Shown: positions 25,533-55,723 of the stretch, in pieces
Numbering within the stretch: the stretch's first letter is position 1
Layout: each line of letters begins with the position of its first letter
Source of the DNA: Candidatus Omnitrophota bacterium
Lineage (GTDB): Bacteria; Omnitrophota; Gorgyraeia; Gygaellales; JAQTUX01
Reading direction: 5' to 3'
DNA length: 64,000 nt
Assembly: GCA_028707125.1 (NCBI GenBank)
Contig: JAQTUX010000001.1
Location: 1,130,438 to 1,194,437 of the forward strand
Position numbers and translations under genes: made by a program
Notes under the pieces: model-generated
What the model was told of the DNA's origin: nothing
Seen by the model: the letters and a program-made list of their open reading frames with translations, nothing else
Database searches by the model: none

Positions 25533-25555
25533 ATTTCTCTCCTATAAATTTAAAA

Positions 25556-31103: not shown

Positions 31104-31119
31104 CTTACCCGCCTTTATG

Positions 31120-38793: not shown

Positions 38794-38834
38794 TGTGTTC
38801 TTTCCTTATGTTTCGGGCTGACCCGTGCCCTGAC

Positions 38835-38860: not shown

Positions 38861-38930
38861 AAATCATAATAAATATACCCTATAATAAACCGCTTGTCAA
38901 GCACCTTATATGAAAGGTTGAGGGGACTTA

Positions 38931-39317
38931 TTATTTCTTCTTACTTGCGGATTTGACGAGCTTCATTACGACTTTTTCTAATTCATCCAGCTGCAGCGGC
39001 TTGTGGATATAGCTGACAGCGCCAAGTTCTTCCGCCTGACGGCCGGAGCCGTCTTTTTCCGGCTCCCTGCCGGTAACCATCACTACCTTGACATCTTTAT
39101 CGGTTTCCCTTATGCGCCGTAAGGTTTCTATGCCGTCTATGCCTCCCGGCATAAGTATATCCAGCAGGATTATCCGCGGCTTCTCTTTTGCTACCTTGCG
39201 CAGCGCCTCCTCGCCGTTAGCGGCAATGCACACGTCAACATCGCGCTTACTGAAAAATCTGGCGGCAAATTCTCGAACATCGGCTTCATCATCCACAATC
39301 ATCAGTTTAACCTTCAT
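38931..39317 (-). CDS. Single-domain response regulator (CheY-like receiver)
   Basis: IVDDEADVRE...LLDILMPGGIDGIE...K motif set. Confidence 0.8.
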   Translation of the reverse strand: MKVKLMIVDDEADVREFAARFFSKRDVDVCIAANGEEALRKVAKEKPRIILLDILMPGGIDGIETLRRIRETDKDVKVVMVTGREPEKDGSGRQAEELGAVSYIHKPLQLDELEKVVMKLVKSASKKK

Positions 39318-39327
39318 GTTGCACCTC

Positions 39328-42231
39328 CTACGCTAGCGGTAAATGGATAATAAACTTGGTGCCTTTGCCATGTTCTGACTCAACCTCAACCGAACCTTTA
39401 TGCATTTCGGAGATTATGCGCCTGATAACGTAAAGCCCCAGGCCTGTCCCCTTGTTCGCGGTGGCCTTGGTAGTGAAAAACGGCGTGAACATCTTCTTCA
39501 AATTCCCCTCTTTTACGCCCATGCCGTTATCCTCCACGACGATCTCCAGGGACTTGCCCTCCGGCCGCGCGGAAATCCTTATCCTGCCCTTGTATCCCTC
39601 TTCCTTTAACGTTTCCTTGCGTTCCTTGATCGCGTCGTAGCCGTTATCAATCAAATTGAAGAACACTTCCTGCAGCTGGACTAAATTACCGTAGATTTTA
39701 TGGTCTTTTTCGGGATAATCCTTGACCAGTTCAAAATCCGCCAGCTTGACCTTGTATTGCACCATTTCCAGCGTATTCTCAATGATCTCGCTCAGGGATA
39801 CAGCCTTAAATCCTTCTTCGCCTTTCTTACTGTATTTCAACAGGCCCTTGACTATTTCGCCTCCCTGAAGAACATTTGCCTGGACCCTGCCAAAGGCATA
39901 TTCTAATTCATCAAATAATTCCCGCATCTCCTTGCCTTGAACGCCTTTTTCTTTCTCAAAGATCTTTAATGTATCCAGCGTGTTTCCGGAAATCAGGGCC
40001 AGAGCGTGGAAACGGTTGTTTATCTGATGGGAAAGCCCGTCTGCCATAGTGCCGATGGTAGCCATTTTCTCTGCCTGCGCTATCTGTTCCTGCATCTCCT
40101 GCGCCTCCTGGTAGAATTCGGCGTTCTCAATTGCCAGGGCCGCCTGGCTGGCGAGCACAGAAAACACATTGATATCTTCAGGCGTATAGGGCTTGCCGGA
40201 AAATTTATCGCCAAGCGCGAGAAACCCCAAAAACTTATCCTCCAGAAAAGTCGGCACTATCATATTCGCCTCAAGCATAGCCATTTGTTCAAGCGCGCCG
40301 GAAACATTCGTATCAAATTCATCCTGGACCTGCTGTTTTAACTCATCGTATACAAACGGTTCTTTCATGTCGGACATCAGCGTGGTCAATGGACTTGACG
40401 CGTTGATTTCCCGCGGATAGGCAGCGCTGTCCTTGCCTCTCTGCGATTTTAAGACAAAGCAGCCATTTTTTTCGTCTAAAAGATAGATCGCCACGCGTTT
40501 AATCTTTACTATCTTGGTAAGAACATGAGTAATGAGATTCAGCAGCCGCTGAAGGTTGCGCACGCGCGTCATTCCTCTGGATGCCTGTTTCAGGGTATTG
40601 TGATACCTATTTTGTTCCCACAACAGACGCTCCTCTGCTCTATGTTGAATATATAGGTAAATATACGGACCTGAGGTTGCTAAGGCAGCCATTAACCCTA
40701 AAGGCGCTATCCACCATCTGCCGCCAAATAAGGTAATGAGTGTGCTACTGCCCCAGGTGGCAAGGGCAAAAGGAAGGCCTAAAACCAGCGTATACACAAA
40801 AACGAATATGCCGGCGCGGGTAAGGGCGATATTGATATTAAGAAGCCGGAATTTTAAGATCGCGTAGGTAACAACACAGGCATACAGAACAATACCAAAA
40901 TTGCCAAAAGGATAAAAAATGTCTATGCCGAATTCCGGCAGGAATGTTGAAGTGCCTCCGATAAACCCGCATAAAAATCCAAATATTATATAAAGAGCTT
41001 GGGTTCGCTGAGTGCCCCTGGATTTTCCAAGGAATCTGGTAAGTTCAAAATAACTCAAAACAATTAAAGACACATAGCAAATAATTCCTAACAAAAGTAA
41101 CGGCGTAACTTCGTTATAATAAATCCCAAAGGCAACTCTAGTCTTATTTATAAGATAAGGGGTACATAAATTTAATATATTGAATAAAATGGCTTGCGTA
41201 TACGCGAATTGTAATACCCGCCTTCGTGATACCTTGCATAATACGCACACCAGATGATAGAAGAACGTCCCTATAAAAAATCCGCCGAAATGAGCGATCT
41301 TCCAACCTAATATTCCAATCGATTCTCTAGTAGCTACACCCGCTATAAATGAGCCGACACCCCAGAAAGTCACAGCAATATTAAACAGCATTAATAATCT
41401 ATGTAATTTAGTTTTGCCGACAACCAAAGTAATAAAAGACAAAATAAAGCAGAAAACTCCCACCGTTAAACCAGCCAATGCAAACAAATTCATTAACAAG
41501 AATCCTATGGGCATACCTACAACTAAAGCAAGGATCATAGCGTAGACGGCTATTCGCGAGAAGGCGATCCGGATATCCATAAACCTATATTTTAAAATTG
41601 CGTAAGTAATAATTGAACAATATATTAATATACTAAAATTGCCTACTGGATAAACATCAAGCCCGAATTCCGGTAAGAATGTTGAAATTCCACCTAAAAA
41701 GCCAATAAGGAATCCCGAAATCATATAAATAGTCTGCCGGCGCTTTTCTGCTTTGGTACTCGGTAAATATTTTAATAATTCATAGAAACTTGAACATACA
41801 AGTGATAACCATATTATTACAGTCGCAAAATAAAATAACGTCCCTTCATTAATATATATTGAATTAAAAGCGAATCTTACTCTATTTATAACTAGGTCTG
41901 TCATAAAAATAAGAGAAAGCATGATTAACCCAGTTACATAAATTGTAAGAACCGTCTTTTTTCTTTTAAGGCCGCAAAACACACATACCATATGATAAAA
42001 AAGTATACCTATGGGAATACCTCCGAGATGCGCAATCTTCCAACCCAAGATTGCTTTCGATGGGGTAGATGATATTCCCGCAATGAATAAACCCAATCCC
42101 CATAGAAGTACAGCGCCGTTAAAAAAGGCTAATATTCTATGTAGTTTGGTTTTACCATATATTAACGATACGAACATCAACACTAAGCCAAAAATAGATA
42201 CCAATAATCCTGACAGCGCAAATAGATTCAT
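39328..42231 (-). CDS. Sensor histidine kinase: tandem duplicated 7TM N-domain, GAF, HisKA, HATPase_c
   Basis: Two ~240-aa membrane repeats both start MNLFAL(S/A)GL... GAF region present. HisKA LSHQINNRFHAL. ATPase motifs DNGMGV...GTGLGL. Confidence 0.8.
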   Translation of the reverse strand: MNLFALSGLLVSIFGLVLMFVSLIYGKTKLHRILAFFNGAVLLWGLGLFIAGISSTPSKAILGWKIAHLGGIPIGILFYHMVCVFCGLKRKKTVLTIYVTGLIMLSLIFMTDLVINRVRFAFNSIYINEGTLFYFATVIIWLSLVCSSFYELLKYLPSTKAEKRRQTIYMISGFLIGFLGGISTFLPEFGLDVYPVGNFSILIYCSIITYAILKYRFMDIRIAFSRIAVYAMILALVVGMPIGFLLMNLFALAGLTVGVFCFILSFITLVVGKTKLHRLLMLFNIAVTFWGVGSFIAGVATRESIGILGWKIAHFGGFFIGTFFYHLVCVLCKVSRRRVLQFAYTQAILFNILNLCTPYLINKTRVAFGIYYNEVTPLLLLGIICYVSLIVLSYFELTRFLGKSRGTQRTQALYIIFGFLCGFIGGTSTFLPEFGIDIFYPFGNFGIVLYACVVTYAILKFRLLNINIALTRAGIFVFVYTLVLGLPFALATWGSSTLITLFGGRWWIAPLGLMAALATSGPYIYLYIQHRAEERLLWEQNRYHNTLKQASRGMTRVRNLQRLLNLITHVLTKIVKIKRVAIYLLDEKNGCFVLKSQRGKDSAAYPREINASSPLTTLMSDMKEPFVYDELKQQVQDEFDTNVSGALEQMAMLEANMIVPTFLEDKFLGFLALGDKFSGKPYTPEDINVFSVLASQAALAIENAEFYQEAQEMQEQIAQAEKMATIGTMADGLSHQINNRFHALALISGNTLDTLKIFEKEKGVQGKEMRELFDELEYAFGRVQANVLQGGEIVKGLLKYSKKGEEGFKAVSLSEIIENTLEMVQYKVKLADFELVKDYPEKDHKIYGNLVQLQEVFFNLIDNGYDAIKERKETLKEEGYKGRIRISARPEGKSLEIVVEDNGMGVKEGNLKKMFTPFFTTKATANKGTGLGLYVIRRIISEMHKGSVEVESEHGKGTKFIIHLPLA

Positions 42232-43760
42232 GTCTTACCCTTACTTTTTTTTATCTTGTTTTTATTTAAAATTGCCTCTGCCGCCTGTTCTCCTGCGTAT
42301 AAAACCATGGATACGCCACCGCCCATACGCGTCCAGGCGCTTGCCAAATATAGGTTCCTTATGGGGGTTCTGTTGTCTAGCCGGTTCATACCGCTCTGAG
42401 ATACAACCTGGCTCCACCCGTAAACTGCTCCTTTATAATTTCCGGTATACCTTTCCATCGTTACGGGCGTGGCTACCTCAACTTTCTCAATATAAGAAGA
42501 TAGATTCGGTATGATCTTTTCGCTGGCCTTGATCAATTCCCGCGAAACCCTTATTTTCTCCTGCAAGTACTGCTCTTTTGTTAATTTAGCCCAAGAGTCA
42601 TAATAAGAAAAGAAAGTAATCCCCATGCTGAATTTTCCTTGCGGGGCCGCGTCGGGATCGATATTAGAATATAACGTCAAACAGAACAATGCATCTTTTA
42701 TGTCAAACTCTCCGGAACATGCAGCGAATTGCTTATTAATATCATAATGCGGATTATAAAAAATCTCATAATCTGAAAATCCCAATTCTCTCAAATCTCT
42801 GTTTAATCCTAAATATACCTGAGCGATAGAGATTGACGGCTCCATCTGCCGAATCTTACTAATAAATTTTACCGGCAGATATTGTTCGCCAATCAATTCA
42901 AGAAAAGTCATACGCGCGTCAACATTTGAGATAAAAAAACTGGCGGAAAATTCTTCGCCTTTATCGGTTATAACCTTTTTTGCGTTCTTATTTTCTAGAA
43001 CTATCTTAGTAATTTTAGAATTTAGTAATACCACCCCTCCATATTCCTTGGTGCTATGTAAAAGGGCATCTGTAATGCTCTGTACGCCTCCCTTTAAATA
43101 ATAACCGCCATTGCGAAAGAAATCATAGGAAGGAAAGACAAAATAAACAGAGGACAATTTATCAAATGGCAGGCCATAATATGGCCAAAACTGCCCAATT
43201 ATAACTTTTAACCTCTCATCTTTTATAAACCTGTCTAATAAATTCTTGTATGGTTTATTGTGATATTTAAATAATGTACGATATTTAAATGGGAGAAAGG
43301 AAGACTCTATGTTCAAGGGTAGATCAGAATACACAAACTTTCTTATATCGGAATATAATTTAGCCATTTCCTTAAATAATTTCTCAATACCTTTCCGTTC
43401 TGAAGGAAAATAGTTTGCTAAAGCACCTATCTGTCCGGAAGAATCAAATTGAGGTAATCGGAAATCAAGATCAGGATATATGGAACGGTATAAATATTGC
43501 GACCTTAGAAAATTAACTCTATTTAGTGCCCCGCATTTTTTAAGGACATTATAAGAAAGCCCTCCTTCACTACAACCATTCATCAAATGCAGCGAGGCGT
43601 CAAAATTAAAATCTCCCCGCCGGAAATTCACGGCATAGCCGCCGGCGACATGGTTTTTCTCCAGGACCAGCACCTTTTTACCGTTTTTTGCCAAGATGGC
43701 GGCTGCGGTTAAGCCGCCTATCCCTGCGCCGATTATGATGACATCGTATTTATTGCTCAT
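42228..43760 (-). CDS. FAD-dependent oxidoreductase, phytoene desaturase (CrtI)-like family
   Basis: N-terminal Rossmann YDVIIIGAGIGGLTAAAILAKNGKKVLVLEKNHVAGG. ~510 aa. C-terminal CrtI-like region. Confidence 0.65.
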   Translation of the reverse strand: MSNKYDVIIIGAGIGGLTAAAILAKNGKKVLVLEKNHVAGGYAVNFRRGDFNFDASLHLMNGCSEGGLSYNVLKKCGALNRVNFLRSQYLYRSIYPDLDFRLPQFDSSGQIGALANYFPSERKGIEKLFKEMAKLYSDIRKFVYSDLPLNIESSFLPFKYRTLFKYHNKPYKNLLDRFIKDERLKVIIGQFWPYYGLPFDKLSSVYFVFPSYDFFRNGGYYLKGGVQSITDALLHSTKEYGGVVLLNSKITKIVLENKNAKKVITDKGEEFSASFFISNVDARMTFLELIGEQYLPVKFISKIRQMEPSISIAQVYLGLNRDLRELGFSDYEIFYNPHYDINKQFAACSGEFDIKDALFCLTLYSNIDPDAAPQGKFSMGITFFSYYDSWAKLTKEQYLQEKIRVSRELIKASEKIIPNLSSYIEKVEVATPVTMERYTGNYKGAVYGWSQVVSQSGMNRLDNRTPIRNLYLASAWTRMGGGVSMVLYAGEQAAEAILNKNKIKKSKGKT

Positions 43761-43788
43761 TTAAGTCGCCATTCAAATTAAATATAAA

Positions 43789-43865
43789 TCATCAACTTCA
43801 AAACCCTAAACACTAAACTCTAAACACTAAACAAACCCAAAACATAAAACACAAAACTCAAAACA
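43789..43865. repeat. G-free AC-rich tract (CTAAAC/AAAC low-complexity) flanking the four-helix-bundle gene
   Basis: ~77 nt with no G on the plus strand. Complementary in composition, and partly in sequence, to the GT-only tract at 44196..44270. Confidence 0.7.
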
Positions 43866-44225
43866 TTACTTGGATTTCTCAACTATGGAGCCGAAAATCT
43901 TTGTTAACTCAGTTGCCTCCTGGATCAAGGCATCCCTTTCCTGAATTTGACCGTCCTTTGGCTCGGTTAACTCAAGCCAATACCTGCTTTCTTTTGCTTC
44001 TTTCCTTGATATTTTTATTCTCATTATGAAATCTTTCTTGCTAAGGGATTCTTCGGCTTCAATATAATTGGCTCCAACAGAACCTGAGGCCCTAATAAGC
44101 TGAACTCCATCTTCAATATCGGCGATACTTCTCGGTAAATCTTTTATATAATTCCTGACTCTTATTGCAAATTTCTTTGTCCTCTCTCCTAAGTCATATG
44201 GTTTTGGGTTTTGAGTTTGGGTCAT
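43866..44225 (-). CDS. Four-helix-bundle protein (TIGR02436, '23S rRNA-intervening sequence protein' family)
   Basis: 119 aa with ...ASGSVGANYIEAEESLSKKDFIMRIKISRKEAKESRYWLEL... typical of this family. Confidence 0.7.
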   Translation of the reverse strand: MTQTQNPKPYDLGERTKKFAIRVRNYIKDLPRSIADIEDGVQLIRASGSVGANYIEAEESLSKKDFIMRIKISRKEAKESRYWLELTEPKDGQIQERDALIQEATELTKIFGSIVEKSK

Positions 44226-44270
44226 TTGGGTTTATTTAGAGTTTAGGGTTTCGGGTTTAGTGTTTGTTTT
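44196..44270. repeat. C-free GT-rich tract, inverted partner of 43789..43865
   Basis: ~75 nt with no C on the plus strand (ggttttgggttttgagtttggg...gtttagggtttcgggtttagtgtttgtttt). It overlaps the first 10 codons of the gene. Confidence 0.7.
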
Positions 44271-44275
44271 ATTGT

Positions 44276-45547
44276 TCATATTTTCCTGAATACCACCGCC
44301 GCGTTGAAGCCGGCGAAGCCGCAGGCGGTTTTTACAACAGTCCTGAGATTGATTCTTGTGAATTCCCTTACGGGAGTAATATTCAGCTTAGGATCCGGTA
44401 TGCCGCAATTTAATACCGGAGGCACCAGGTTATTTTCTAAAGATAAAAGCAAGATCGCGGTTTCCAACAAAGCGGTGCTGCCTAAATTGTGGCCCACATA
44501 GGGTTTGAATGCCGTGATAAGCGGCCTTTTGGGGTTTTTGCCGAACACGGCGGTGATCGCCTTTGCCTCGTATGCGTCGGTAACAGGCGTGGCAACTCCG
44601 TGAGGCACTATTAAATCCACCTTCTTTTTATTGACGCGCGCGTTTTTTATGGCGCCTTCAATGACGCCTTTATATGAATCGCTGGTCATATCCGGCACGG
44701 AAATCTTCCAGCCCTCCATATGGAAGGCGCCGCCGGCATACTCCGCGTATATACGCGCTCCCCTCTTTTTAGCGCTCTTTAAATCCTCCAATACGATGCC
44801 TGCTCCGCCGTCGCCTAAGACAAACCCGTCCCTGTTTTTGGCGAACGGCTTTATCAATCCGTCCCGCGCGTACATACCCAGGCGCCTGAACCAGGATTGC
44901 TTAAAAATGCTCGGCCTGTCAGCCGCCGCCACGATCACGGAGTCGCATTTACCGCTCTTTATGATGCCTGCCCCTGCCTCAAGCGCGTACAGGCCTGAAG
45001 CGCAGGCATTGTTTACAAATAAAGAGTAGCCGTGAATACCCAGCGCCTTTGCCGCGTAATATAAGAATACAAATGTCTGTAGATCGTGCCCTCTTTTGGC
45101 GAACCCTTCGTTGATACCTTTGAAAAACCCAAGCTTATTCTCCTGCTTTAATTTATAAAACTCATCTACTACATCAGTATAGAATTCATCCAGGCCGGGA
45201 TTCTCATGCGCGAGGACCAAGCCGATCCTGTTTCCGTCAATCTCTGTATGGCTGTCATCCAGGGCAAGCTTCGCCGCTGCTATAAGGTAAAACAAATCCT
45301 GCGGCTCTCTCCCGTCTTTCCACTGCCGGATATCCGCTAAGACCTGCTTATCAATATTGAAATTGCCGATATTAAAATCCTTGATCTTATGCGCAAAATA
45401 TTTATCGATCAATGTGCCGTCCAGAGAGAACTCTTCCTGCGTAAGGCCTGTGTCCCTGTTCAACACAGAATGCCAGACATTATCCCTGCCCGCGCCTATC
45501 GCCGATAACGGCCCTAAACCAGTTATGACAACTCGTTTATCCTTCAT
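44276..45547 (-). CDS. Beta-ketoacyl-ACP synthase (KAS I/II family; catalytic Cys present)
   Basis: NACASGL active-site Cys. VPHGVATP and VGHNLGSTA His positions are retained. Confidence 0.75.
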   Translation of the reverse strand: MKDKRVVITGLGPLSAIGAGRDNVWHSVLNRDTGLTQEEFSLDGTLIDKYFAHKIKDFNIGNFNIDKQVLADIRQWKDGREPQDLFYLIAAAKLALDDSHTEIDGNRIGLVLAHENPGLDEFYTDVVDEFYKLKQENKLGFFKGINEGFAKRGHDLQTFVFLYYAAKALGIHGYSLFVNNACASGLYALEAGAGIIKSGKCDSVIVAAADRPSIFKQSWFRRLGMYARDGLIKPFAKNRDGFVLGDGGAGIVLEDLKSAKKRGARIYAEYAGGAFHMEGWKISVPDMTSDSYKGVIEGAIKNARVNKKKVDLIVPHGVATPVTDAYEAKAITAVFGKNPKRPLITAFKPYVGHNLGSTALLETAILLLSLENNLVPPVLNCGIPDPKLNITPVREFTRINLRTVVKTACGFAGFNAAVVFRKI

Positions 45548-46754: not shown

Positions 46755-47190
46755 TGTTCTTTATTTTAACGGCAAACGATGTGGTGCTCTTAGCCACTAC
46801 CCTATCCCCCACCCTTGCCGTTGTTTCTATTACCCCGCCTTTGTCTATGATCTTTACATTAACCGCTTCCAATATTAACGTATCGCCGGGATATACGGGA
46901 GACAAAAATTCCGCTTTTACCTTCGCCAGATAATAATCCGGATTCGTTTGGGCGATCTCCGGCTTCTTTGTGTAATAAAGCACTATTGACGCCTGCGCCA
47001 TCGCCTCAATGATCAGCACGCCCGGCATTATCGGTTTACCCGGAAAATGCCCTCTGAAGAAATCCTCTTTTGGGTCAAGGAATCTCCTGGCTACGATGCG
47101 CCTGCCTTCTTCCACCTCAATGACCTCGTCAATGAAGAGGAACGGCTCTCGCTGCGGCAATATGCTTTTGACCTTTTCCTTGTCCCACAT
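46741..47190 (-). CDS. fabZ: 3-hydroxyacyl-ACP dehydratase (FabZ-like hot-dog)
   Basis: HFPGKPIMPGVLIIEAMAQ motif. 149 aa. Confidence 0.8.
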   Translation of the reverse strand: MWDKEKVKSILPQREPFLFIDEVIEVEEGRRIVARRFLDPKEDFFRGHFPGKPIMPGVLIIEAMAQASIVLYYTKKPEIAQTNPDYYLAKVKAEFLSPVYPGDTLILEAVNVKIIDKGGVIETTARVGDRVVAKSTTSFAVKIKNNEKQ

Positions 47191-47198
47191 ATTTATTA

Positions 47199-47432
47199 TT
47201 ACCCCTTTAACTGCCTTGCCATCTCAATTATTTTATTCAGCGTCCTTGCCTTTGGTATCTGGTCTTCAGGCACGACTATCTTGAGCTTCCTTTCGATTGC
47301 CGCCACAATCTCAAGCGACTTCATTGAATCAACTTCCATATCGGCAAAGTCCTTATCGGGCTCAATCTCATTTGCCGGGATCTCAATGATCTCCGATACT
47401 AATTGTGTTATCTGGTTTACCAATTCGTCCAT
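47199..47432 (-). CDS. Acyl carrier protein
   Basis: 77 aa with phosphopantetheine site DMEVDSMKSLEIV. Confidence 0.7.
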   Translation of the reverse strand: MDELVNQITQLVSEIIEIPANEIEPDKDFADMEVDSMKSLEIVAAIERKLKIVVPEDQIPKARTLNKIIEMARQLKG

Positions 47433-47443
47433 ACAAATCCTCC

Positions 47444-48667: not shown

Positions 48668-49407
48668 CGCATTATCATTCCGCCGTCAATGATTATGACC
48701 TGTCCTGTAATGAATCCCGCCTTATCGCTAAGCAGAAAACTCACCAGTTTTGCCACTTCCTCCGGCCTGCCAAACCTGCCCAGAGGGATCTTCTTCAGCA
48801 TCTCTTCTCTGTATTTCTCCTTCAACTCCTTCGTCATATCAGTTTCAATGAACCCGGGCGCGACCGCGTTTACCCTTATGTTGTAGGCAGCAACTTCCCG
48901 CGCCAGCGCCCTGGTAAATCCGATCATCCCTGCCTTCGCGGCTGCATAATTGGTCTGGCGAGGCATGCCGGATATGCCTGTCACCGAAGCAACATTGACA
49001 ATATCGCCGCTTTTCTGTTTTACCAACGTAATTATCGCGGCATTCGTAAGGTTAAACACCCCGTTTAAATTGGTGTCTATCACCTTGTGCCAGTCATCCT
49101 TAGCCATAAGCGCCAGCGCCTTGTCGTTGGTGATGCCGGCGTTGTTAATGACGATATCCAGCGCGCCGAAATATTCCTTTGTATCCTTGACCCACTGCTT
49201 CACCGCTTCAAGATCCCTGATGTCCACCCGGTATGCCTTTGCCTTTACGCCCAAAGACGCGATCTCTTTTTCAAGCTCAACGGCGGTATCCACGCTTTGC
49301 AGGTAATTGAACGATACATTGGCGCCGCCTTTGGCCAACTCCAGAGCGATAGCCCTGCCTATGCCGCGCGTGCCTCCGCTTATAATGGCTGTCCTGCCTT
49401 TAATCAT
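48664..49407 (-). CDS. fabG: 3-oxoacyl-ACP reductase (SDR, FabG-like)
   Basis: TAIISGGTRGIGRAIA, NNAG, YAAAKAG SDR motifs. Confidence 0.8.
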   Translation of the reverse strand: MIKGRTAIISGGTRGIGRAIALELAKGGANVSFNYLQSVDTAVELEKEIASLGVKAKAYRVDIRDLEAVKQWVKDTKEYFGALDIVINNAGITNDKALALMAKDDWHKVIDTNLNGVFNLTNAAIITLVKQKSGDIVNVASVTGISGMPRQTNYAAAKAGMIGFTRALAREVAAYNIRVNAVAPGFIETDMTKELKEKYREEMLKKIPLGRFGRPEEVAKLVSFLLSDKAGFITGQVIIIDGGMIMR

Positions 49408-49780
49408 TGCCCAGGTTCCTTTTGACCTTATCGATCAGCTCGGTTATATCAAAGGGCTTAAATATATAATCCGCGACCTTCAAATCCAGCGCCTCTTTAT
49501 ATTTGCTCTCATCGGCGTAACCGGTGATCAGTATTTCGGGCACGGGTTTCTTGCCTGCCTCCTTCAAATAATCCCGGATCCGCCTGATCGTCTCTATCCC
49601 GTCTATATCGGGCATCCTGATATCGGAAATGATAAGATGGAAGTCCACTTTTTTGACCTCCTCTATCGCCTCTTTTCCGCTCTTTACCACTGTCGCGTTG
49701 TGGCCCTGGCTGCTGAGTAATTTACGCAAACTTTTAACTATCAGCTCATCATCATCAATGACTAAGATGTTCTTGCTCAT
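49400..49780 (-). CDS. Single-domain response regulator (CheY-like)
   Basis: ILVIDDDEL...IISDIRMPDIDGIE. Paralog of 38931..39317. Confidence 0.8.
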   Translation of the reverse strand: MSKNILVIDDDELIVKSLRKLLSSQGHNATVVKSGKEAIEEVKKVDFHLIISDIRMPDIDGIETIRRIRDYLKEAGKKPVPEILITGYADESKYKEALDLKVADYIFKPFDITELIDKVKRNLGND

Positions 49781-49783
49781 CGG

Positions 49784-51964
49784 CTACCTCCCCTTGCCGG
49801 CGTCCGCCGCGTTTGCTGCCGGTAATCTGACAGTAACAACCGTCCCCTTATTCAACTCGGAATCAATGCTGATCGTGCCTTTGTGCTTTTCAACAATGGA
49901 CTGGCATATGGAAAGGCCCAGCCCCAGCCCCTTTCCCACGTCCTTGGTAGTGAAAAAAGGGTCAAAGATCTTCCGTTGTATATCCCTGGATATGCCTGTG
50001 CCTTCATCCTCCACGGCTATCGCGACCCATTTGCCGTTCCTGGATAATGTTACGCGGATGTCCCCGCTTTTCTTTATCTTCCTTATGGCGTCCCTGCCGT
50101 TTAAGATTATATTGGTCAATACCTGTTCCAGTTCGTTGGGATTGCCCTTGACAACATAGCCGTCCTTCTTAAGGTCGGCGACGATCCTGACGTTCTCCTG
50201 TTCCAGCTGATAGCCGATAAAACTCATCACGCTCTTGAACACATCCGACAGATCCACTTCGGAAAAATCTACCGCTTCAAGCGGCTTCCTGCCGTAGGCC
50301 ATCAGCTTCTGCACGATCGTGCGGCACCTCCTGGTCGCCTCTTCTATGATCTCAAGGGACTCCCTGTCCATCCCTGTATCTACGGCTAAAAGCATCTGGA
50401 CGTTGGTCAGTATCGCCGCCAGAGGATTGTTGATCTCATGCGCCACGCCGCCTGCCAGAGTACCTACCGTCGCCAGTTTCTCCGCCTGGACCAGCTGTTT
50501 CTGCACCTCAACCAGCTCCCTGGTCCTCTGCCTGACCTGATCTTCTATGTTCTCATACAAGAGGGCGTTCTCAATGGCTAAAGCGGCCTGGCTTGCCAGA
50601 ACAGAAAAGGCATTCAGATCTTCCTGCGTATAGGTCTTCTCAGAAAGCTTGTCCCCCAATATAAGAAAACCCAGCAGCTTATCTTCCGAAAAGCTGGGCA
50701 CGACTACGGCGGCGTCCAAAAGTTCCAACTGTTTTTCCAAACTCTCAAGCCCGGAATCAACATCTTCTTCTGTTTCCCGCTTTATTTCTTCGTGCACTAT
50801 CGGCTCGCGCCCGTCTTCAAGGCATTTGATCAACCGGGTTTCTCTGCCTATGGACGCGGGCTGACCCTGTTTCAAATTCCCCCCCGCCTTCAAAACAAAC
50901 TTTCCGCCTTCTTTATCATATAAATATATCGCCGAATGAGAAATATGGACGTTCTGAATGACAATATTCACGAAAAAATGCAATAACTCCTGCAGGCTGT
51001 GGATCCGGGTCATCCCCATCCCCGCCTGCTTTAAGATCTCCTGATAACGCCTCTGCTCCTTAAGCAGGCCTTCTTCGGCTTTACGCTGCAGGTAAATATA
51101 AACCAGGGTGGCAACCGTAGCCAGGACCGCTATTGAACCCGACGGCAGTATCCACCAATTTACCCCGAAATTAGCGACGAAGAGGTCCTTAAGCCGCAAA
51201 GCCAGGGCAAAAGGTATACCCAAAAGCAAGGTATAAACCGCTATAAAGATCCCTGTGCGGGTAATGGCGACCTTTATATCCATAAGACGGTAGCGGAGTA
51301 TGGCGTAAGTGACCATAAAGAAGTATAAGGGGACGGTAAAGTTCAAAATGGGATAAAGGTTCAGGCCGAAACAGGGCAGGAAAGACGTCCCCCCGCCCGC
51401 GAAGCCCAAAGCGGCGGCAGAGAGAAAATACTTGATCTGATCGCGCTTCAGGCCGCTCATCTTTTTATAATTTATTACCAGTTCAATATGGCCGTACAGC
51501 ACCAGTCCGGCAAAGTAAAAGATGACGAACAGATAAAGCAGCGGCCCGCCGGGATAAACAAAATATACCGGCTTGACCCACTTCAAGTCCGTAAAATATA
51601 AGGTACAGCTATTGATAAAAAGGCCCTTAAAGAAAATGTCGGATACCAGGAATATAACAGCCCATAACCCTAAGAATCTGATAAAAAGAGGATGTTTAAT
51701 GTGCAGGAATTCATAAATAAGGTATACAAATGAGAACGGTATTAAAATGATCCCCACATAAGCGAACTGCCACCAGAAAAATGCCTCTGACGCGCTTTCG
51801 GCGTGGCTGACCATAAATGCCCCGAACCCGTAAAAAGAGGTAGCGAAAGCAAAAATAGACCACTTCCTGGCCAGTTTAGTCCTGTAGCCTTTGACATAGA
51901 CAAAGACCGCCATGGATAGACTGGTGATCGCCGTTAATATACTGGATATGCCGTAAAGGTTCAT
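49784..51964 (-). CDS. Sensor histidine kinase (7TM N-domain, GAF, HisKA, HATPase_c)
   Basis: N-terminal 7TM. HisKA VAHEINNPLAAI. ATPase DEGTGI...GLGLGL. Paralog of 39328..42231 with a single 7TM unit. Confidence 0.8.
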   Translation of the reverse strand: MNLYGISSILTAITSLSMAVFVYVKGYRTKLARKWSIFAFATSFYGFGAFMVSHAESASEAFFWWQFAYVGIILIPFSFVYLIYEFLHIKHPLFIRFLGLWAVIFLVSDIFFKGLFINSCTLYFTDLKWVKPVYFVYPGGPLLYLFVIFYFAGLVLYGHIELVINYKKMSGLKRDQIKYFLSAAALGFAGGGTSFLPCFGLNLYPILNFTVPLYFFMVTYAILRYRLMDIKVAITRTGIFIAVYTLLLGIPFALALRLKDLFVANFGVNWWILPSGSIAVLATVATLVYIYLQRKAEEGLLKEQRRYQEILKQAGMGMTRIHSLQELLHFFVNIVIQNVHISHSAIYLYDKEGGKFVLKAGGNLKQGQPASIGRETRLIKCLEDGREPIVHEEIKRETEEDVDSGLESLEKQLELLDAAVVVPSFSEDKLLGFLILGDKLSEKTYTQEDLNAFSVLASQAALAIENALLYENIEDQVRQRTRELVEVQKQLVQAEKLATVGTLAGGVAHEINNPLAAILTNVQMLLAVDTGMDRESLEIIEEATRRCRTIVQKLMAYGRKPLEAVDFSEVDLSDVFKSVMSFIGYQLEQENVRIVADLKKDGYVVKGNPNELEQVLTNIILNGRDAIRKIKKSGDIRVTLSRNGKWVAIAVEDEGTGISRDIQRKIFDPFFTTKDVGKGLGLGLSICQSIVEKHKGTISIDSELNKGTVVTVRLPAANAADAGKGR

Positions 51965-53235
51965 TTCAGCCGTTTAGCGAATCTTTTAGCAAGCGCGATT
52001 ATAGTCAAGATGGGCGGCACTCCGGGGCTTTTCGGCAATACGCTCGCGTCGCAGACAAAAAGCCTTTTTATCCGCGTTTCCAGTTCCCTGTCAACCACCT
52101 CGTCTATGGCCGCCGTGCCGCCGGGATGCGCCCCGCGTACCTTTGTCACGGCTATCGTGCGCGGCAGGCATCCTGCCTCAAGCAATATCCTGCCTGAGAT
52201 CTCGGCGCCCTTATTCAATTTGGACAAATCAGCAGGGGTCAACGTTTTCTCCACTACCCCGTCTTTACGCACGCCGCCTTGCGGATCATCGTCTATCTTT
52301 GTCATAATCCCGAGCATCCTGTCTCTATGCCTGAATTTCAGAATGTGCCTGAAAGGCGAAACGGATACGTAGGCAAGCGCGCAGTCAATAAAGGGTGACA
52401 AAAGAAAACCGTCCTGTATATTCACCGCCGCCATCGTTACTTCTTTATCCATTCCTGTGTCTTTAGTCAGCCCGATAGTGACGTTAAAAAGGTCTAAAAA
52501 CAATTTCCTGCCTGCCTCTATCCCTGAATTCTGCAAGATCACCGGCGTGCCGATGCCTCCCGCCGCCAGGATCACTGTGTTGGCGCGTATCTCTATCTTT
52601 CTTCCCGCCCTGCCGCGGCCTTCTACTCCCGCGGCCCTGCCTTCGGAAACAAGGACTTTAGTAATATCAGCGCCCGCGAGCAAAGAAGCGCCGTTGTCCC
52701 GCGCCTCTTTCAAATAAGTAAGCGCACTCCATCTTGCCGTAGTGCGGCAGCCCAGCACACAGTTGCCGCAAGAAACGCATTTCCTGAAATCAATGATCTT
52801 CGGCATAGGCATCATCTTAAAACCGAGTTTATCCGCCGCATCCATGATCCTTTTCGTGCCTCTGCCTATAAACCTGTCCGGCACCGGCGTGACAGCGAGT
52901 TCCTTTTCGGCCTCAAGGAACTCCTGCGTCAGATCCATGCCCAGGTTCTTGAATTCCGCCTCAAGCCCCCTGACGCCGTTACCGCAGCTGACAAGGGAGG
53001 TGCCGCCTACTGCTATGGAACGATAAAAGAAAACCCCTTGCCTGCTCCTGCTCAACAGGCCTAACCTATCGTACAGGTTGACTGCCGCGTAAAATTGCGA
53101 ACCGAATTTCTTCCGAGCCAGATCAGGGCCCTTCTCCACGACCAGGACCTTCCTGCCGTTCTTCGCCAGCTCTCTGGCTAAAGTTGACCCTGCTACACCG
53201 GAACCAACGATGACAATATCGCTATCCATCCTCAT
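51961..53235 (-). CDS. GMC-family FAD-dependent oxidoreductase
   Basis: DIVIVGSGVAGSTLARELAKNGRKVLVVEKG. C-terminal GMC-type HPGGTAAI...FVCDASVLP motifs. Confidence 0.65.
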   Translation of the reverse strand: MRMDSDIVIVGSGVAGSTLARELAKNGRKVLVVEKGPDLARKKFGSQFYAAVNLYDRLGLLSRSRQGVFFYRSIAVGGTSLVSCGNGVRGLEAEFKNLGMDLTQEFLEAEKELAVTPVPDRFIGRGTKRIMDAADKLGFKMMPMPKIIDFRKCVSCGNCVLGCRTTARWSALTYLKEARDNGASLLAGADITKVLVSEGRAAGVEGRGRAGRKIEIRANTVILAAGGIGTPVILQNSGIEAGRKLFLDLFNVTIGLTKDTGMDKEVTMAAVNIQDGFLLSPFIDCALAYVSVSPFRHILKFRHRDRMLGIMTKIDDDPQGGVRKDGVVEKTLTPADLSKLNKGAEISGRILLEAGCLPRTIAVTKVRGAHPGGTAAIDEVVDRELETRIKRLFVCDASVLPKSPGVPPILTIIALAKRFAKRLK

Positions 53236-53264
53236 CAGCCACCCCTCTTAAGATATCCCGCGCT

Positions 53265-54833
53265 TCAGACCTTTATCGTTTCTTTTACCCTGCCTACCAT
53301 TGAGGCGTCCACTAATTTATCTCCCCAATAAAAATCAGACACCTCAAAGCCGTGTTTGGCGCCCAACAACCGTATCTCTTCCATTTTTTCGGACGTGATG
53401 TTTCCTCTGCCGAAACTGAAATTCTCGTAGCGTTTCTCAAGCGCCAAAATGATCGCCTCGGAAAAACAGCCGTAGAGGACGTTTCCCGGCGGAAGCCCTA
53501 TATCAATAGGTATATGAATGGGCGTGGGCGCCTTTGCCATGCCGCCTGAAAATATCAGCACATCCTGCCTGGATACCGGCGCGTAAGAGATATTCTTGGG
53601 GTATCCCACGTCGCAGATTATGGCGCCGGGCTTAAACCACTCTATCTTCAGAATGGAGGCGCTGGCTGCTGCCGCGGCGATAACAATATCGGCGTCCCTC
53701 ACGGCTGCCTCGTTATCGGTCGTGGCCGCTATCCTTGCCTTTCTCTTCTTTGACAGCTCCTTTTTCATCTTCGCGAGGTTTGATTTTGTGCGCCCGGTTA
53801 TGGTCACCTGCGCCGCCTTTTCCGACAACACCCTGGCGCAGGCGCTTCCGATGTCGCCGGTGCCTCCTATAACGGTGGCCTTCGCGGCTGAGATGTCCAG
53901 ATCCAGCATACGGGAGGCCTTGAGCACGCCTTCAACAGCCATTGCCGCGGTAAAGGTATTTCCCGTCGTCACTGCCACGTCCACCTCGTTGGCGATCTCC
54001 TGCCCTATCCTCTCCGCCACAATAGAGGTAAAGCCGCCGAGAGTGACTATGCCCACGCCGTATTTCTCGGCGATCCTGCAGGCCCTGACCACCTTGGCGA
54101 ATATGGACCACATATCCTTCTCTATCATATCGGGGATAAATGTGGCGATGATAAAACAGCCGTTTGTGACCGCGCCGGCATTTGACTTGACGTTCATAAT
54201 ATCGTATAGCTTGAAAGAAGGCGCTACGTTGAAAAGCTGGCCGAGGAATTCCCGCGAAGGCATCTTGATATCGGGCTTGAGCGCCTGGAGGTATTTCTGC
54301 CAGTGGTTATAATTATAGGGATGGCCGATGATCCCGAAACCCGCCACCTTGTCTTTGTCGCCGTGCTTGAAACTGGCGTAACGCAGAGATATCAGGCGGC
54401 GCTCCATCGCGTCCAGGATCGCCTCAAAATTACTCGTGACCAGCTTCTTTATAAAATCGTCGGCGAAGTCGGCGATCACGGGTATGCCCACCCTTATCTG
54501 GACATTCACAATCACCTCGGTGCCTTCGGGGTGCTTCTTGAAGATCCACTCGCCCTTGAACTCTTCCAGGTCGCCCTCTACGGCATTAAAACGGACGGTG
54601 TTATTCCTCAGATCAAGAGTGTCTTCCTCTACCCAGCTTATGGGGACATTGTTGACCTCAACCCTCCATTTCGTCTTCATCTTGTTGCGGCTTTTCTCTA
54701 CGACCGACGCCTCTTTTACATGCACCATATAACTGGGGAAATCCTCAACCTTTGTTATGAGGCGGATCACCTTCCATTCCGGGGCAGGCACCACCTTTGA
54801 TAAACGTATCTTCATTACCTCCTCTTTAGCCAT
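53265..54833 (-). CDS. Fusion protein: N-terminal SRPBCC (START/polyketide-cyclase-like) domain + long-chain acyl-ACP reductase (cyanobacterial AAR)-like domain
   Basis: C-terminal ~340 aa has GFGIIGH, LGGFTSI, TTGNTFTAA, VIGGTGDIGSACARVL, DVGYPKN, FSFGRGNITSEKMEEI...HGF. These match the conserved blocks of acyl-ACP reductase (Pfam Shikimate_DH-like). The N-terminal ~150 aa resembles an SRPBCC ligand-binding fold. Confidence 0.6.
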   Translation of the reverse strand: MAKEEVMKIRLSKVVPAPEWKVIRLITKVEDFPSYMVHVKEASVVEKSRNKMKTKWRVEVNNVPISWVEEDTLDLRNNTVRFNAVEGDLEEFKGEWIFKKHPEGTEVIVNVQIRVGIPVIADFADDFIKKLVTSNFEAILDAMERRLISLRYASFKHGDKDKVAGFGIIGHPYNYNHWQKYLQALKPDIKMPSREFLGQLFNVAPSFKLYDIMNVKSNAGAVTNGCFIIATFIPDMIEKDMWSIFAKVVRACRIAEKYGVGIVTLGGFTSIVAERIGQEIANEVDVAVTTGNTFTAAMAVEGVLKASRMLDLDISAAKATVIGGTGDIGSACARVLSEKAAQVTITGRTKSNLAKMKKELSKKRKARIAATTDNEAAVRDADIVIAAAAASASILKIEWFKPGAIICDVGYPKNISYAPVSRQDVLIFSGGMAKAPTPIHIPIDIGLPPGNVLYGCFSEAIILALEKRYENFSFGRGNITSEKMEEIRLLGAKHGFEVSDFYWGDKLVDASMVGRVKETIKV

Positions 54834-55416
54834 GCGTCATCTCCTCTATTGTATTTTTTAATTTATGGATACATTCCTGCATATAAATATCATCTATTAT
54901 CTCGTGGTGCATCTTCATAAGGTATTGCGGCTTGCCTATCATGATCCTGATAGGGCGCAGCCTGGGGAACTTCGCGCTTCTGGGGAACGCCTCGAAGGCG
55001 CCCATGATGGCGCAGGGCAGTATGGGCCTGCCGGTCTTAAGCGCCAGAAGCGCCACGCCCCTTCTGAACGGCCTCATCTTGCCGTCGCGCGTGCGCGTGC
55101 CTTCGGGAAAGAGCCCGACATTCCTGTCGTGGAACAACAGGTCTACCGCGTGCTTTGAAGAGCTCCCGCTCGCCAGCGTTTTGAGCCTGCGCATAAACCA
55201 ACGCAAGCCCAGCATAAAATGGAACTGCCTTAAGGCGATCCAGTAGATCTTTTTCGGTATTGCCGCGCCCACAATAAACGGGTCAAGGAAACTTACGTGG
55301 TTTGCCACTACGATAAAATTCCCCTTCCTCGGTATATTATCCCTGCCCTCTATCTTAAGCCGGAAAAACACCTTGAGTATAATAAACCCTAAATCCCTGA
55401 ATATCCAATACCACAT
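54826..55416 (-). CDS. 1-acyl-sn-glycerol-3-phosphate acyltransferase (PlsC-like)
   Basis: HX4D motif VANHVSFLD and FPEGTRTRDG. The start is placed at the internal Met so that it abuts the upstream HTH gene. Confidence 0.7.
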   Translation of the reverse strand: MWYWIFRDLGFIILKVFFRLKIEGRDNIPRKGNFIVVANHVSFLDPFIVGAAIPKKIYWIALRQFHFMLGLRWFMRRLKTLASGSSSKHAVDLLFHDRNVGLFPEGTRTRDGKMRPFRRGVALLALKTGRPILPCAIMGAFEAFPRSAKFPRLRPIRIMIGKPQYLMKMHHEIIDDIYMQECIHKLKNTIEEMTHG

Positions 55417-55417
55417 A

Positions 55418-55654
55418 CTAAAGTTGTTGTTCTGCCTTCCGCCGCTCTTTGCCGGTGGTATGATACTCAATCTTTTCCTGCATCCATCGTTCCAACGACT
55501 TGCGTTGGAACCGCCAATCCGCCCCGATCTTAAACGCCGGGATCCTGCCCTGCCTTGCCATACGCTGTACAGTCAATGGGTGAATGTTAAGGAATTCCGC
55601 CACGTCCTTAGTTGTCATTATCTGTTTTGATATTTTATTATTTGACATATCCAC
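55418..55654 (-). CDS. Small HTH DNA-binding protein (excisionase/MerR-like HTH_17)
   Basis: MTTKDVAEFLNIHPLTVQRMARQGRIPAFKIGADWRF. First gene after the consensus promoter. Confidence 0.6.
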   Translation of the reverse strand: MDMSNNKISKQIMTTKDVAEFLNIHPLTVQRMARQGRIPAFKIGADWRFQRKSLERWMQEKIEYHTTGKERRKAEQQL

Positions 55655-55694
55655 CCCAACCTAAACATACCTAAACATATTATATGAGATAATA

Positions 55695-55723
55695 ATTATA
55701 GAGGACGGGCGCTATTATGTCAA
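55695..55723 (-). promoter_or_regulatory. Sigma70 consensus-type promoter TTGACA-N17-TATAAT for the HTH-led operon
   Basis: Minus strand reads TTGACAtaatagcgcccgtcctcTATAAT, ~35 nt upstream of the HTH start at 55654. Confidence 0.5.

Follow-up and report, generated by a model that had tools for sequence, protein, structure and literature searches.

An Omnitrophota operon joining Cluster I-like fatty acid synthesis genes and an SRPBCC-AAR fusion to two HisKA_7TM kinase/CheY pairs

Gene content and layout of the operon

The subject of this study is a sixteen-gene operon in a 64,000-nucleotide stretch of contig JAQTUX010000001.1 from a Candidatus Omnitrophota bacterium (assembly GCA_028707125.1, positions 1,130,438 to 1,194,437; hereafter designated the window, in whose numbering coordinates are given), in which genes of the fatty acid synthase (FAS) type and a gene for an SRPBCC domain fused to an acyl-acyl carrier protein (ACP) reductase-like (AAR-like) domain stand together with two pairs of genes for a seven-transmembrane (7TM) sensor kinase and a CheY-type receiver. 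The open reading frames (ORFs) occupy 38931-55654, all on the minus strand. Seven of the junctions between them overlap by 4-14 nt and six have gaps of 1-29 nt, and the widest, of 50 and 105 nt, are only the two beside the gene for a 23S_rRNA_IVP protein. A promoter of the sigma-70 type (TTGACA-17-TATAAT) was found on the same strand at 55695-55723, about 41 nt upstream of the start codon of the first (HTH) gene. It is the sole 12/12 consensus match within 38.5-56.2 kb, the count of promoter-like matches overall being that expected from shuffling. In at least nine related loci (designated below by L and a number), the orthologous HTH gene is likewise preceded, at a distance of 37-62 nt, by TTGACA-17-TATAxx. 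A second near-consensus promoter (11/12, 38900-38872) is located after the last gene of the operon (RR2) and before a gene for a 2557-aa FlgD_ig/type IX secretion system (T9SS)-tail protein. The promoter-led, tightly packed single-strand operon of sixteen ORFs that a preliminary description had read from the letters of the DNA is thus confirmed in its promoter and short junctions, and Pfam and NCBIfam uphold the domain calls of all sixteen genes.

The first gene encodes a small DNA-binding protein of the HTH_17 (excisionase/MerR-like) type (55418-55654; PF12728, E=1e-17), which stands before PlsC in many orthologous loci. The PlsC/AGPAT-family acyltransferase (54826-55416, with the ORF extending to 55470; PF01553, E=1e-24, 87 bits against a cut-off of 23, and below the TIGR00530 cut-off) contains the motifs HX4D (NHVSFLD) and FPEGTR; its likely start is the ATG at 55416, 1 nt past the HTH stop, which gives 196 aa (orthologues, 196-199 aa), and an in-frame TTG lies upstream at 55470. 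The PlsC stop overlaps by 8 nt the start of the gene for the fusion of an SRPBCC (START-like lipid-binding) domain (Polyketide_cyc, residues 15-137) and an AAR-like NAD(P)H thioester reductase (TIGR04058, residues 166-497) at 53265-54833. There follow a short GMC-family FAD oxidoreductase of 424 aa (51961-53235; GMC_oxred_N, E=2e-25, and GMC_oxred_C), the stop of which overlaps the next start by 4 nt, the sensor kinase HK1 with the Pfam domains HisKA_7TM, GAF, HisKA, and HATPase_c (49784-51964; 726 aa), and RR1, a single-domain CheY-type receiver (49400-49780; 126 aa; PF00072, E=1e-27), the stop of which overlaps the start of FabG by 8 nt.

The FAS genes begin with a FabG-type 3-oxoacyl-ACP reductase (48664-49407; TIGR01830, 316 bits, cut-off 298), followed by KS1, a homologue of ketosynthases (KS) that lacks the catalytic triad and resembles a chain-length factor (CLF) in alignments and PDB comparison (47444-48667), a dedicated ACP with a DSM motif (47199-47432; PF00550, under all NCBIfam ACP cut-offs), a FabZ-type 3-hydroxyacyl-ACP dehydratase (46741-47190; NF000582, 123 bits, cut-off 113), KS2 (45537-46754), which from alignment and PDB comparison has an intact Cys-His-His triad and is predicted to be active and to be the partner of KS1, and KS3 (44276-45547), a divergent ketosynthase with weak Pfam and NCBIfam scores and an intact triad. 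The previously described set of KS, CLF, ACP, dehydratase, and ketoreductase is borne out, and an enoyl reductase was not found in the operon. The remaining genes encode a 23S_rRNA_IVP four-helix-bundle protein (43866-44225; PF05635, E=4e-13), a flavoenzyme of the CrtI/amine-oxidase family (phytoene-dehydrogenase-like; 42228-43760; PF01593; PDB 4rep and 4dgk), the stop of which overlaps the start of the following kinase gene by 4 nt, the kinase HK2 of 967 aa with tandem HisKA_7TM (two 7TM stretches in Pfam), GAF, H-box, and HATPase_c (39328-42231), and RR2, a single-domain CheY-type receiver (38931-39317; 128 aa; PF00072, E=2e-26), which is the last gene ahead of an island.

Relationships of the lipid enzymes

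The AAR-like domain of the fusion protein scored 173.7 bits against TIGR04058 (equivalog cut-off, 449.7) and equally, 174 bits, against the model of the PigE N-terminus, the AAR and PigE models covering residues 166-508. In comparison with PDB 6jzq, a cyanobacterial AAR (E=1e-36), its segment YGCFSEA is aligned on the Cys segment of the structure, in which the Cys is presumably Cys294, the catalytic residue of AAR, and the NAD(P)H motif is kept as GGTGDIGS (GxTGDIGS). Cys456 is nearly invariant in 13 diverse fusions (26-68% identity), of which the sole exception is also without the glycine motif. Taken together, these features indicate that the domain is a genuine AAR-like thioester reductase, as the preliminary description had proposed. 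A true shikimate dehydrogenase was rejected in view of these models and the catalytic Cys, the match to Shikimate_DH being limited to the NAD-binding region (307-417). More than 120 homologues of the whole protein were found at 64-72% identity, and those with an organism name all belong to Omnitrophota.

Two known systems resemble the AAR-like domain. With the cyanobacterial AAR of the alkane pathway, in which AAR works with aldehyde-deformylating oxygenase (ADO), it shares the fold family over about 330 residues together with the Cys and the NADPH motif; it differs in the N-terminal SRPBCC fusion and in being coupled to a 7TM kinase instead of an ADO partner. Indeed, neither the ferritin-like/ADO family nor Ole genes were found in the operon or in the neighbouring genes that were scanned, and the hydrocarbon-type product considered earlier is therefore unsupported. 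[quoted passage not shown] A class-III aminotransferase gene adjoins the AAR gene in the relatives L051 and L073, whereas the window protein has SRPBCC and not an aminotransferase as its fusion partner and has no pig genes nearby.

The core FAS proteins are related to those of the anammox Cluster I, which consists of amxACP, amxFabZ, amxFabF2, amxFabFmut, a phytoene-dehydrogenase homologue, and a B12 radical SAM protein, and which is the proposed ladderane cluster; a 'ladderane' class exists in antiSMASH. The PDB molecule names of the closest structures being generic, 9s5h/9s5i were assigned by inference to the amxFabF2/amxFabFmut heterodimer (preprint 10.64898/2026.05.19.726425) and 7qv0/8ay* to a study of anammox FabZ (PMC10139942). 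With these assignments, KS2 is closest to 9s5h_B (474 bits, ~62% identity), ahead of Iga11 (6kxd; 357) and canonical FabF (330 bits), and KS1 to 9s5h_C (357 bits), which would be the inactive amxFabFmut partner, canonical FabF reaching at most 265 bits and nothing else exceeding 270 bits. In the alignments, the Cys/His/His triad of KS1 is replaced by Y/S/E, and KS2 and KS3 retain the triad. The top PDB matches of FabZ are 7qv0/8ay* (120-123 bits, versus at most 92 for canonical FabZ), and those of the ACP are 7qv0_D and 9s5i_E, namely, the ACPs co-crystallised with anammox FabZ and FabF, which rank ahead of canonical homologues. As regards the possibility that all three ketosynthases are housekeeping FabF/FabB, this identity was rejected for KS1 and KS2, whose nearest solved structures are the anammox pair, and the best solved-structure match of KS3 reached just 154 bits.

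These scores argue that the FAS part (FabG, KS1, ACP, FabZ, and KS2) is homologous to anammox Cluster I (KustE3603-3608). The likeness extends to the gene order ACP-FabZ-KS, which is that of kuste3603-3605, and to the combination of a predicted active KS with a triad-less one, an amxACP-like ACP, and an amxFabZ-like dehydratase, whereas the operon in the window adds FabG, KS3, PlsC, SRPBCC-AAR, GMC, and the two 7TM kinase/CheY pairs, and its host belongs to Omnitrophota (with a further case in L109, a Nitrospirae metagenome-assembled genome, or MAG) and not to the anammox planctomycetes. Heterodimeric amxFabF2 and amxFabFmut are reported to form a KS/CLF-like pair that decarboxylates malonyl-ACP and in cross-linking favours C6 and C8 over C16 probes, and Cluster I was described in the same work as unique to ladderane producers (preprint 10.64898/2026.05.19.726425). 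Clusters syntenic to the anammox one have nevertheless been noted in Desulfotalea by Rattray et al. (PMC2649909), and expressed 'ladderane' biosynthetic gene clusters (BGCs) of unknown function have been predicted by antiSMASH in Omnitrophota and other non-anammox MAGs (PMC9902471). In view of these reports and of the matches to the anammox set, the FAS part is to be regarded as one more representative, not seen before, of a cluster type already known though functionally unsolved, and the statement that the pathway matches no described one no longer holds for this part.

A B12 radical SAM gene was not found by Pfam and NCBIfam among the sixteen operon genes, so that ladderane production is not expected. 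A B12-binding radical SAM protein (B12-rSAM) 34-35% identical to Kuste3608/Kuste2803 of the proposed ladderane clusters is, however, encoded immediately after SRPBCC-AAR, between it and the kinase, in the Omnitrophota relatives L027 (9450-10934), L028 (5808-7286), and L017 (2614-3493), whose AAR identity is 68-71%. The polyene systems of ishigamide (Iga11/Iga12) and of the aryl polyenes (APE; ApeO/ApeC/ApeR) share with the operon the KS/CLF pair, an extra KS, a dedicated ACP, a ketoreductase, a dehydratase, and the absence of an enoyl reductase; yet the window proteins are nearer to the anammox set, Iga11 being the second-best structural relative of KS2. The APE-specific families looked for (aryl-starter, thioesterase, LolA/MMPL export, and methyltransferase) were not found in the operon, and matches to ApeI and ApeP were weak (ApeI-like, 25.8 bits, below the cut-off of 28.5). 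PlsC may be likened to ApeD, which we take to be the PlsC-like acyltransferase of APE clusters. Neither FabD (MCAT), FabH (KAS III), FabI/K/L/V, PlsX/Y, nor acetyl-CoA carboxylase (ACC) was found in the operon.

The other flavoenzymes and KS3 may be placed as follows. GMC occupies the slot between AAR and the kinase in about nine related loci, the slot in other loci being taken by a short-chain dehydrogenase/reductase (SDR), an aminotransferase with GNAT, or B12-rSAM, and it is probably an accessory tailoring enzyme. At the position that we take to be that of the second catalytic Asn of the cholesterol-oxidase type, it has Pro. Its residues 153-163 (CVSCGNCVLGC, CxxCxxCxxxC) resemble a set of Fe-S cluster ligands. 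Since no anammox-named protein was found among the best 120 matches of the CrtI-like protein, it was compared directly with Kuste3607/3336 as given in a paper supplement, and the identity was 28-31% over the ~400 residues available, versus 23% to Pantoea CrtI. Orthologues of KS3 (55-78% identity) adjoin the genes for a CrtI-like enzyme and a 7TM kinase in L107, L109, and L110, from which KS3 is judged to belong to the CrtI-like/HK2 module.

Kinases, receivers, and the two modules

HK1 and HK2 scored 48.9 and 69.1 bits, respectively, against PF16927 (HisKA_7TM; gathering score, 28.6) and carry HATPase_c together with the H-boxes VAHEINNPL (HK1) and LSHQINNRF (HK2). The description of two paralogous 7TM-GAF kinase/CheY pairs is borne out by identities of 37% between HK1 and HK2 and 31% between RR1 and RR2. 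The phospho-acceptor residues of both receivers are intact (DD...D53...T...K in RR1), and neither is attached to a DNA-binding domain. An AlphaFold2 model of HK1 residues 1-300, calculated from a 32-sequence alignment (mean pLDDT, 91), has a fold like that of G-protein-coupled receptors (GPCRs), matched at 6-13% identity. In HK2, residues 1-245 and 246-490 are 47.5% identical, with a 735-nt DNA repeat beneath them, and the repeat is shared with the L107 orthologue; this duplication of the N-terminus (40732-42231) would give a kinase of about 14 or more transmembrane (TM) helices.

The association of the fused gene with a kinase gene was counted by script in all fetched loci having at least 2.5 kb of sequence downstream of a fused SRPBCC-AAR gene. 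A kinase gene followed within four genes in 56 of 56 loci (immediately in 33, no later than the third gene in 53, and as the fourth gene in 3), some loci being one contig in two collections (e.g., L010/L033), so that the independent loci are somewhat fewer than 56. An unfused AAR gene was followed by a kinase in none of seven cases, and the loci with split SRPBCC and AAR genes (L026 and L091-L098) have no kinase link; the coupling is thus specific to the fused form. Overlaps of stop and start between enzyme and kinase genes are frequent among the loci, and PlsC precedes AAR in 25 of them. Distant fusions (27-50% identity) are without PlsC, and the same type of kinase still follows. The genes found between AAR and the kinase encode GMC, SDR/NAD_binding_4 reductases, class-III aminotransferase plus GNAT, B12-rSAM, or a fusion of LuxD-like acyltransferase and methyltransferase, each of which could plausibly tailor an aldehyde or a thioester. 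Among the distant AAR-kinase loci, one clade (L022, L048, L049, L053, L060, L066, and L068) has ORFs of ~1030-1100 aa immediately upstream, which are often accompanied by a ~200-aa gene; those in L022 (1-4255) are RND (ACR_tran/MMPL) transporter genes, which may export a product. Genes for an enoyl-CoA hydratase (ECH)-family enzyme, GDSL, and methyltransferase occur after KS in distant loci.

Comparison of the loci separates the operon into two parts. Module A consists of HTH-PlsC-SRPBCC/AAR-(GMC)-7TM-GAF kinase-CheY, and module B of the FAS genes and KS3-CrtI-like-7TM kinase-CheY. The former is a conserved core, HTH-PlsC-SRPBCC/AAR-[GMC]-7TM-GAF kinase-CheY (1-3 copies), in 20 genome loci, mostly from Omnitrophota, where it often adjoins housekeeping genes, and FabG-CLF-KS-ACP-FabZ follows CheY only in the window, L107, L014, L021, L041, L042, L082, and L084 (~8 loci). 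The module (ACP)-KS3-CrtI-like-7TM kinase-CheY recurs in L107, L108, L109, and L110. In the Nitrospirae MAG L109, FabG-CLF-ACP-FabZ-KS-CrtI-KS3 proteins are 46-67% identical to those of the window, and the set is directly followed by a HisKA_7TM kinase and RR-HD-GYP. L108, which lies in the same genome (sample SRR22315508), encodes an ACP, an ACP-FabZ fusion, a CrtI-like enzyme (54%), a 7TM kinase, and CheY, with PilZ nearby, and its ACP and FabZ parts are 76% and 71% identical to the ACP and FabZ of the window. This small module adjoins a type I restriction gene. In L107, a relative from a different sample, the order is AAR-GMC-HK-RR-RR-FabG-CLF-ACP-FabZ-KS-KS3-CrtI-CrtI'-HK2, and this conservation indicates that the arrangement is real and inherited. 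Judging from these gene orders, two ancestral enzyme + 7TM kinase modules, one AAR-linked and the other KS3/CrtI-linked, have been fused in the operon. The earlier view of the kinases as two duplicated regulators of one pathway must accordingly be given up, each kinase belonging to its own ancestral module and the coupling being conserved beyond this genome. The G+C fraction is 0.39-0.41 across 40001-44000 (CrtI-like/HK2) versus 0.48-0.54 elsewhere in the operon, a dip that could be due to TM-rich coding sequence or to a separate origin of the tail of module B.

The receivers in related loci are in part fused to enzymes. Inside AAR-7TM-kinase loci, we found fusions of a receiver to a ketosynthase (L023, 16622-18328), to an aldehyde dehydrogenase (ALDH; L022, 15464-17428), and to an alpha/beta-hydrolase (L072, 10756-12084). 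Other receiver outputs are a nucleotide (adenylate/guanylate) cyclase in L024, HD-GYP in L034, L088, and L109, and GAF in L025, and at least 10 loci have a stand-alone receiver directly ahead of KS or FabG (ahead of KS in L051, L064, L071, and L074). Pairs of a gene for a lipid-metabolising enzyme and adjoining genes for a polytopic membrane kinase and a response regulator are known in CqsA/CqsS, RpfF/RpfC, and DesK/DesR, with an HD-GYP output in Rpf. The present pairs differ from these in that the enzyme families (AAR, CrtI-like, and KS) and the sensor domain (HisKA_7TM + GAF) are unrelated and the receivers mostly stand alone or are fused to enzymes. In our literature search, which as the search of an incomplete library is weak evidence, no description was found of the SRPBCC-AAR fusion, of its HisKA_7TM pairing, or of receiver-ketosynthase fusions; HisKA_7TM was met there in two domain censuses only.

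The 23S_rRNA_IVP gene was correctly called an insert, as it is missing from L107, where KS3 and CrtI overlap at the corresponding place. It lies within an element at 43801-44265 (minus strand) bounded by 41-nt imperfect inverted repeats (43801-43841 and 44225-44265; 85% complementary), which are built of AAACNCT-like units, and RNA folding gives a long-range stem around the ORF (z=-3.5). The element looks like an rRNA intervening sequence that has landed in an mRNA operon, and the stem could be a processing site for RNase III.

Downstream of RR2, an island of ~17 kb (21793-38930; Pfam) contains the 2557-aa FlgD_ig/T9SS-tail protein, an RHS toxin with a DUF4329 tip, a spare DUF4329 gene, an IS200-like transposase, and an AbiEii/HTH_3 pair. 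Beyond it, on the minus strand, are genes for a GAF-like + HD-GYP (HD_5) protein (20629-21792; PF13487), a monogalactosyldiacylglycerol (MGDG)-synthase-like glycosyltransferase (19495-20622; PF06925), and a Lip_A_acyltrans (LpxL/PatA-like) acyltransferase (18639-19493; PF03279, E=3e-47). GAF-HD-GYP, MGDG-synthase-like, and LpxL-like genes come directly after RR2 in L010, L021, and L030, and to these the window orthologues are 44-60% identical (HD-GYP, 60%/54% to L010/L021; MGDG-synthase-like, 57%/48% to L010/L021; LpxL-like, 44% to L010). By this comparison, the ancestral operon is judged to have run on into these three genes, which are here displaced by the island. A gene for an AbiEii-type toxin with a small partner gene recurs in or near the operon in L014 (19229-20645, between KS2 and ACP), L018 (16370-17583), and the window (22743-23977). 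The window is rich in polymorphic-toxin loci, with Tc-toxin/RHS-type genes (SpvB, TcdB_mid, RHS repeats, and FG-GAP) on the same strand at 7035-16792 and 59520-63734. A larger cluster for nonribosomal peptide or polyketide synthases in the flanks was rejected, the big adjacent ORFs being RHS/Tc-toxin and T9SS-type surface proteins. Near a methyltransferase gene (4879-5634) and several unannotated small ORFs lies a radical SAM/SPASM maturase-type gene (2214-3197), which is unrelated to the B12-rSAM of Cluster I.

Possible functions of the operon

Our preferred reading, to which we assign a probability of roughly 0.4, is that the two fused enzyme-plus-receptor-kinase modules make and tailor a dedicated envelope lipid tail under direct phosphorelay feedback. 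In such a pathway, the KS/CLF system would build a special acyl-ACP upon the dedicated ACP, and KS3 and the CrtI-like enzyme would extend or (de)saturate the acyl chain. The AAR-like domain would load the acyl group on Cys456 and reduce it with NAD(P)H to the aldehyde, which the SRPBCC domain would hold and which GMC would shift between the aldehyde and alcohol levels. PlsC, ancestrally together with the MGDG-synthase-like and LpxL-like enzymes, would put the chains into glycerolipids or glycolipids. The 7TM domains would sense a membrane-resident product or the state of the membrane, and the phosphorylated CheY proteins would act on the enzymes and on the turnover of cyclic di-GMP (c-di-GMP, through HD-GYP), not on DNA. 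Given the absence of an enoyl reductase from the operon and the preference of the anammox homologues for C6-C8 substrates, a short- or medium-chain product, or an unsaturated one, may be formed.

The lipid context is provided by the PlsC motifs, by PlsC standing before AAR in 25 loci, and by the MGDG-synthase-like and LpxL-like genes of the ancestral continuation. An action of the relay on enzymes is suggested by the receivers fused to KS, ALDH, and hydrolase and by those preceding KS or FabG, and the recurrence of the enzyme-kinase pairing over many lineages looks like an undescribed way to sense or control lipid synthesis. Several points weigh on the other side. The adjacency of genes does not reveal which way control runs, whether the kinase senses the product or merely regulates the pathway. 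Only ~8 loci combine the FAS module with the AAR core, so that the modules need not share a substrate, and the distant AAR-kinase loci (L022-L025 and L048-L076) have no PlsC. Furthermore, the varying tailoring genes between AAR and the kinase would suit a diversifying small molecule better than a bulk membrane lipid, the cyclase and HD-GYP outputs of receivers point to general signalling, and the fold match of the sensor model to GPCRs, at 6-13% identity, tells nothing of a ligand.

The main rival takes these points as its starting place: SRPBCC-AAR, together with the variable tailoring enzymes and in some cases a dedicated KS/ACP, would make a small hydrophobic aldehyde-derived signal for the adjacent 7TM kinase in a quorum-sensing-like or autocrine circuit, of which CqsA/CqsS and RpfF/RpfC, as pairs of signal synthase and receptor kinase, are analogues. 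The signal, delivered or diffusing, would be an aldehyde, alcohol, amine, or acid, and the output would run via CheY, c-di-GMP, or a cyclic nucleotide. This would account for an AAR-kinase adjacency that is invariant while the tailoring genes vary by lineage, for the diverse outputs (cyclase in L024, HD-GYP in L034, L088, and L109, GAF in L025, and PilZ near in L108), and for the enzyme of the ECH family, to which DSF synthase belongs, with GDSL and methyltransferase after KS in distant loci. The C6-C8 preference of the anammox KS/CLF and FabZ homologues, the proposed action of the PigE-type AAR on a branched C8-type (3-acetyloctanoyl) thioester, the predicted GPCR-like sensor fold, and the RND-type exporter genes upstream in L022 fit it as well. 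On the other hand, the PlsC, MGDG-synthase-like, and LpxL-like genes flanking in Omnitrophota suggest a membrane constituent, the fusions of receivers to KS, ALDH, and hydrolase suggest feedback on the pathway rather than an outward response, and quorum sensing would not readily be expected of ultra-small cells that may depend on a host. We consider such a circuit unlikely, though a serious competitor of the envelope-lipid reading.

An ordinary cluster for a specialised metabolite, the idea of the preliminary description, namely, a highly reducing type II polyketide synthase-like system for a polyene or ladderane-type lipid or pigment with the kinases as co-located regulators, appears improbable. 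The KS/CLF, ketoreductase, and dehydratase genes without an enoyl reductase in the operon, the place of Iga11 as second-best relative of KS2, the weak ApeI/ApeP-like matches, the B12-rSAM 34-35% identical to Kuste3608/2803 in related operons, and the expressed 'ladderane' clusters of Omnitrophota MAGs (PMC9902471) would agree with it. Against this stand a core that sits amid housekeeping genes throughout the phylum at high identity, which is unusual for an accessory BGC, and a coupling to kinases (56/56, with stop/start overlaps) that is tighter and wider than that of a cluster-situated regulator; the receivers, moreover, have no DNA-binding domain, and B12-rSAM, starter-unit, exporter, and thioesterase genes are absent from the operon.

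Synthesis of ether lipids, to which we give still less credence, would proceed from the AAR-derived aldehyde or alcohol to 1-O-alkyl or 1-O-alkenyl glycerolipids, with PlsC acylating and GMC and the CrtI-like enzyme forming or desaturating the ether bond; FAR with GNAT/AGPS in eukaryotes and ElbD in myxobacteria are analogues. Such a route would explain why an acyltransferase, an acyl reductase, and a flavoprotein are encoded side by side, with the PlsC-AAR pair translationally coupled and conserved, and the lipids of anammox bacteria, which have the homologous cluster, include ether-linked ladderane alcohols. For 93 out of 267 Omnitrophota MAGs, matches to ElbD homologues have been described (PMC11868695). 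It leaves the kinase coupling unexplained, however; no AGPS, PlsA/R, or Ger homologue was found in the operon, GMC is present in a minority of the loci, and PlsC is missing from the distant AAR-kinase loci. Finally, housekeeping type II FAS and phospholipid synthesis of a small genome under a DesK-like homeoviscous two-component system is very improbable, for although the scores of FabG, FabZ, and KS2 clear some of the NCBIfam cut-offs for FAS, PlsC is present, and the neighbourhood in many relatives is a housekeeping one, the operon lacks FabD, FabH, FabI/K/L/V, PlsX/Y, and ACC, KS1 is predicted to be catalytically dead, no ACP cut-off is reached by the ACP, each of the four core proteins lies nearer to the anammox set than to canonical FAS, the FAS genes are absent from most orthologous operons, and anammox genomes keep a separate canonical FabF.

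The role of the kinases could be taken one step further, which at present we regard as rather doubtful: the HisKA_7TM-GAF kinases may be bacterial GPCR-like lipid receptors hard-wired to ligand-making enzymes, with a phosphorelay that switches lipid enzymes via the receivers. SRPBCC-AAR, or KS3 with the CrtI-like enzyme, would be the ligand maker, SRPBCC would hand a fatty-aldehyde-derived molecule to the 7TM bundle, and the receiver domains would bind, or as in the fusions be part of, ketosynthases, aldehyde dehydrogenases, and hydrolases. If this is true, the modules would form a ligand-synthase/receptor-kinase circuit of a new class, two-component control acting post-translationally on fatty-acid condensing enzymes would be seen for the first time, and the Cluster I KS/CLF/ACP/FabZ/phytoene-dehydrogenase set would be a widespread non-ladderane pathway co-opted by anammox bacteria.

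The receiver-KS, receiver-ALDH, and receiver-hydrolase fusions suggest direct phospho-control of lipid enzymes, of which we know of no description. The orphan HisKA_7TM family gains a concrete and testable context, being almost always encoded right after a lipid-tail enzyme. The Cluster I KS/CLF-ACP-FabZ-phytoene-dehydrogenase set is not unique to ladderane producers, contrary to the preprint cited above (10.64898/2026.05.19.726425), and its orthologues at 60-67% identity in Omnitrophota and the Nitrospirae MAG, with or without B12-rSAM, are natural comparators for ladderane-specific genes. An overview paper on Omnitrophota says nothing of their lipids; the presence of the module at high identity in many Omnitrophota MAGs bears on the biology of their envelope.

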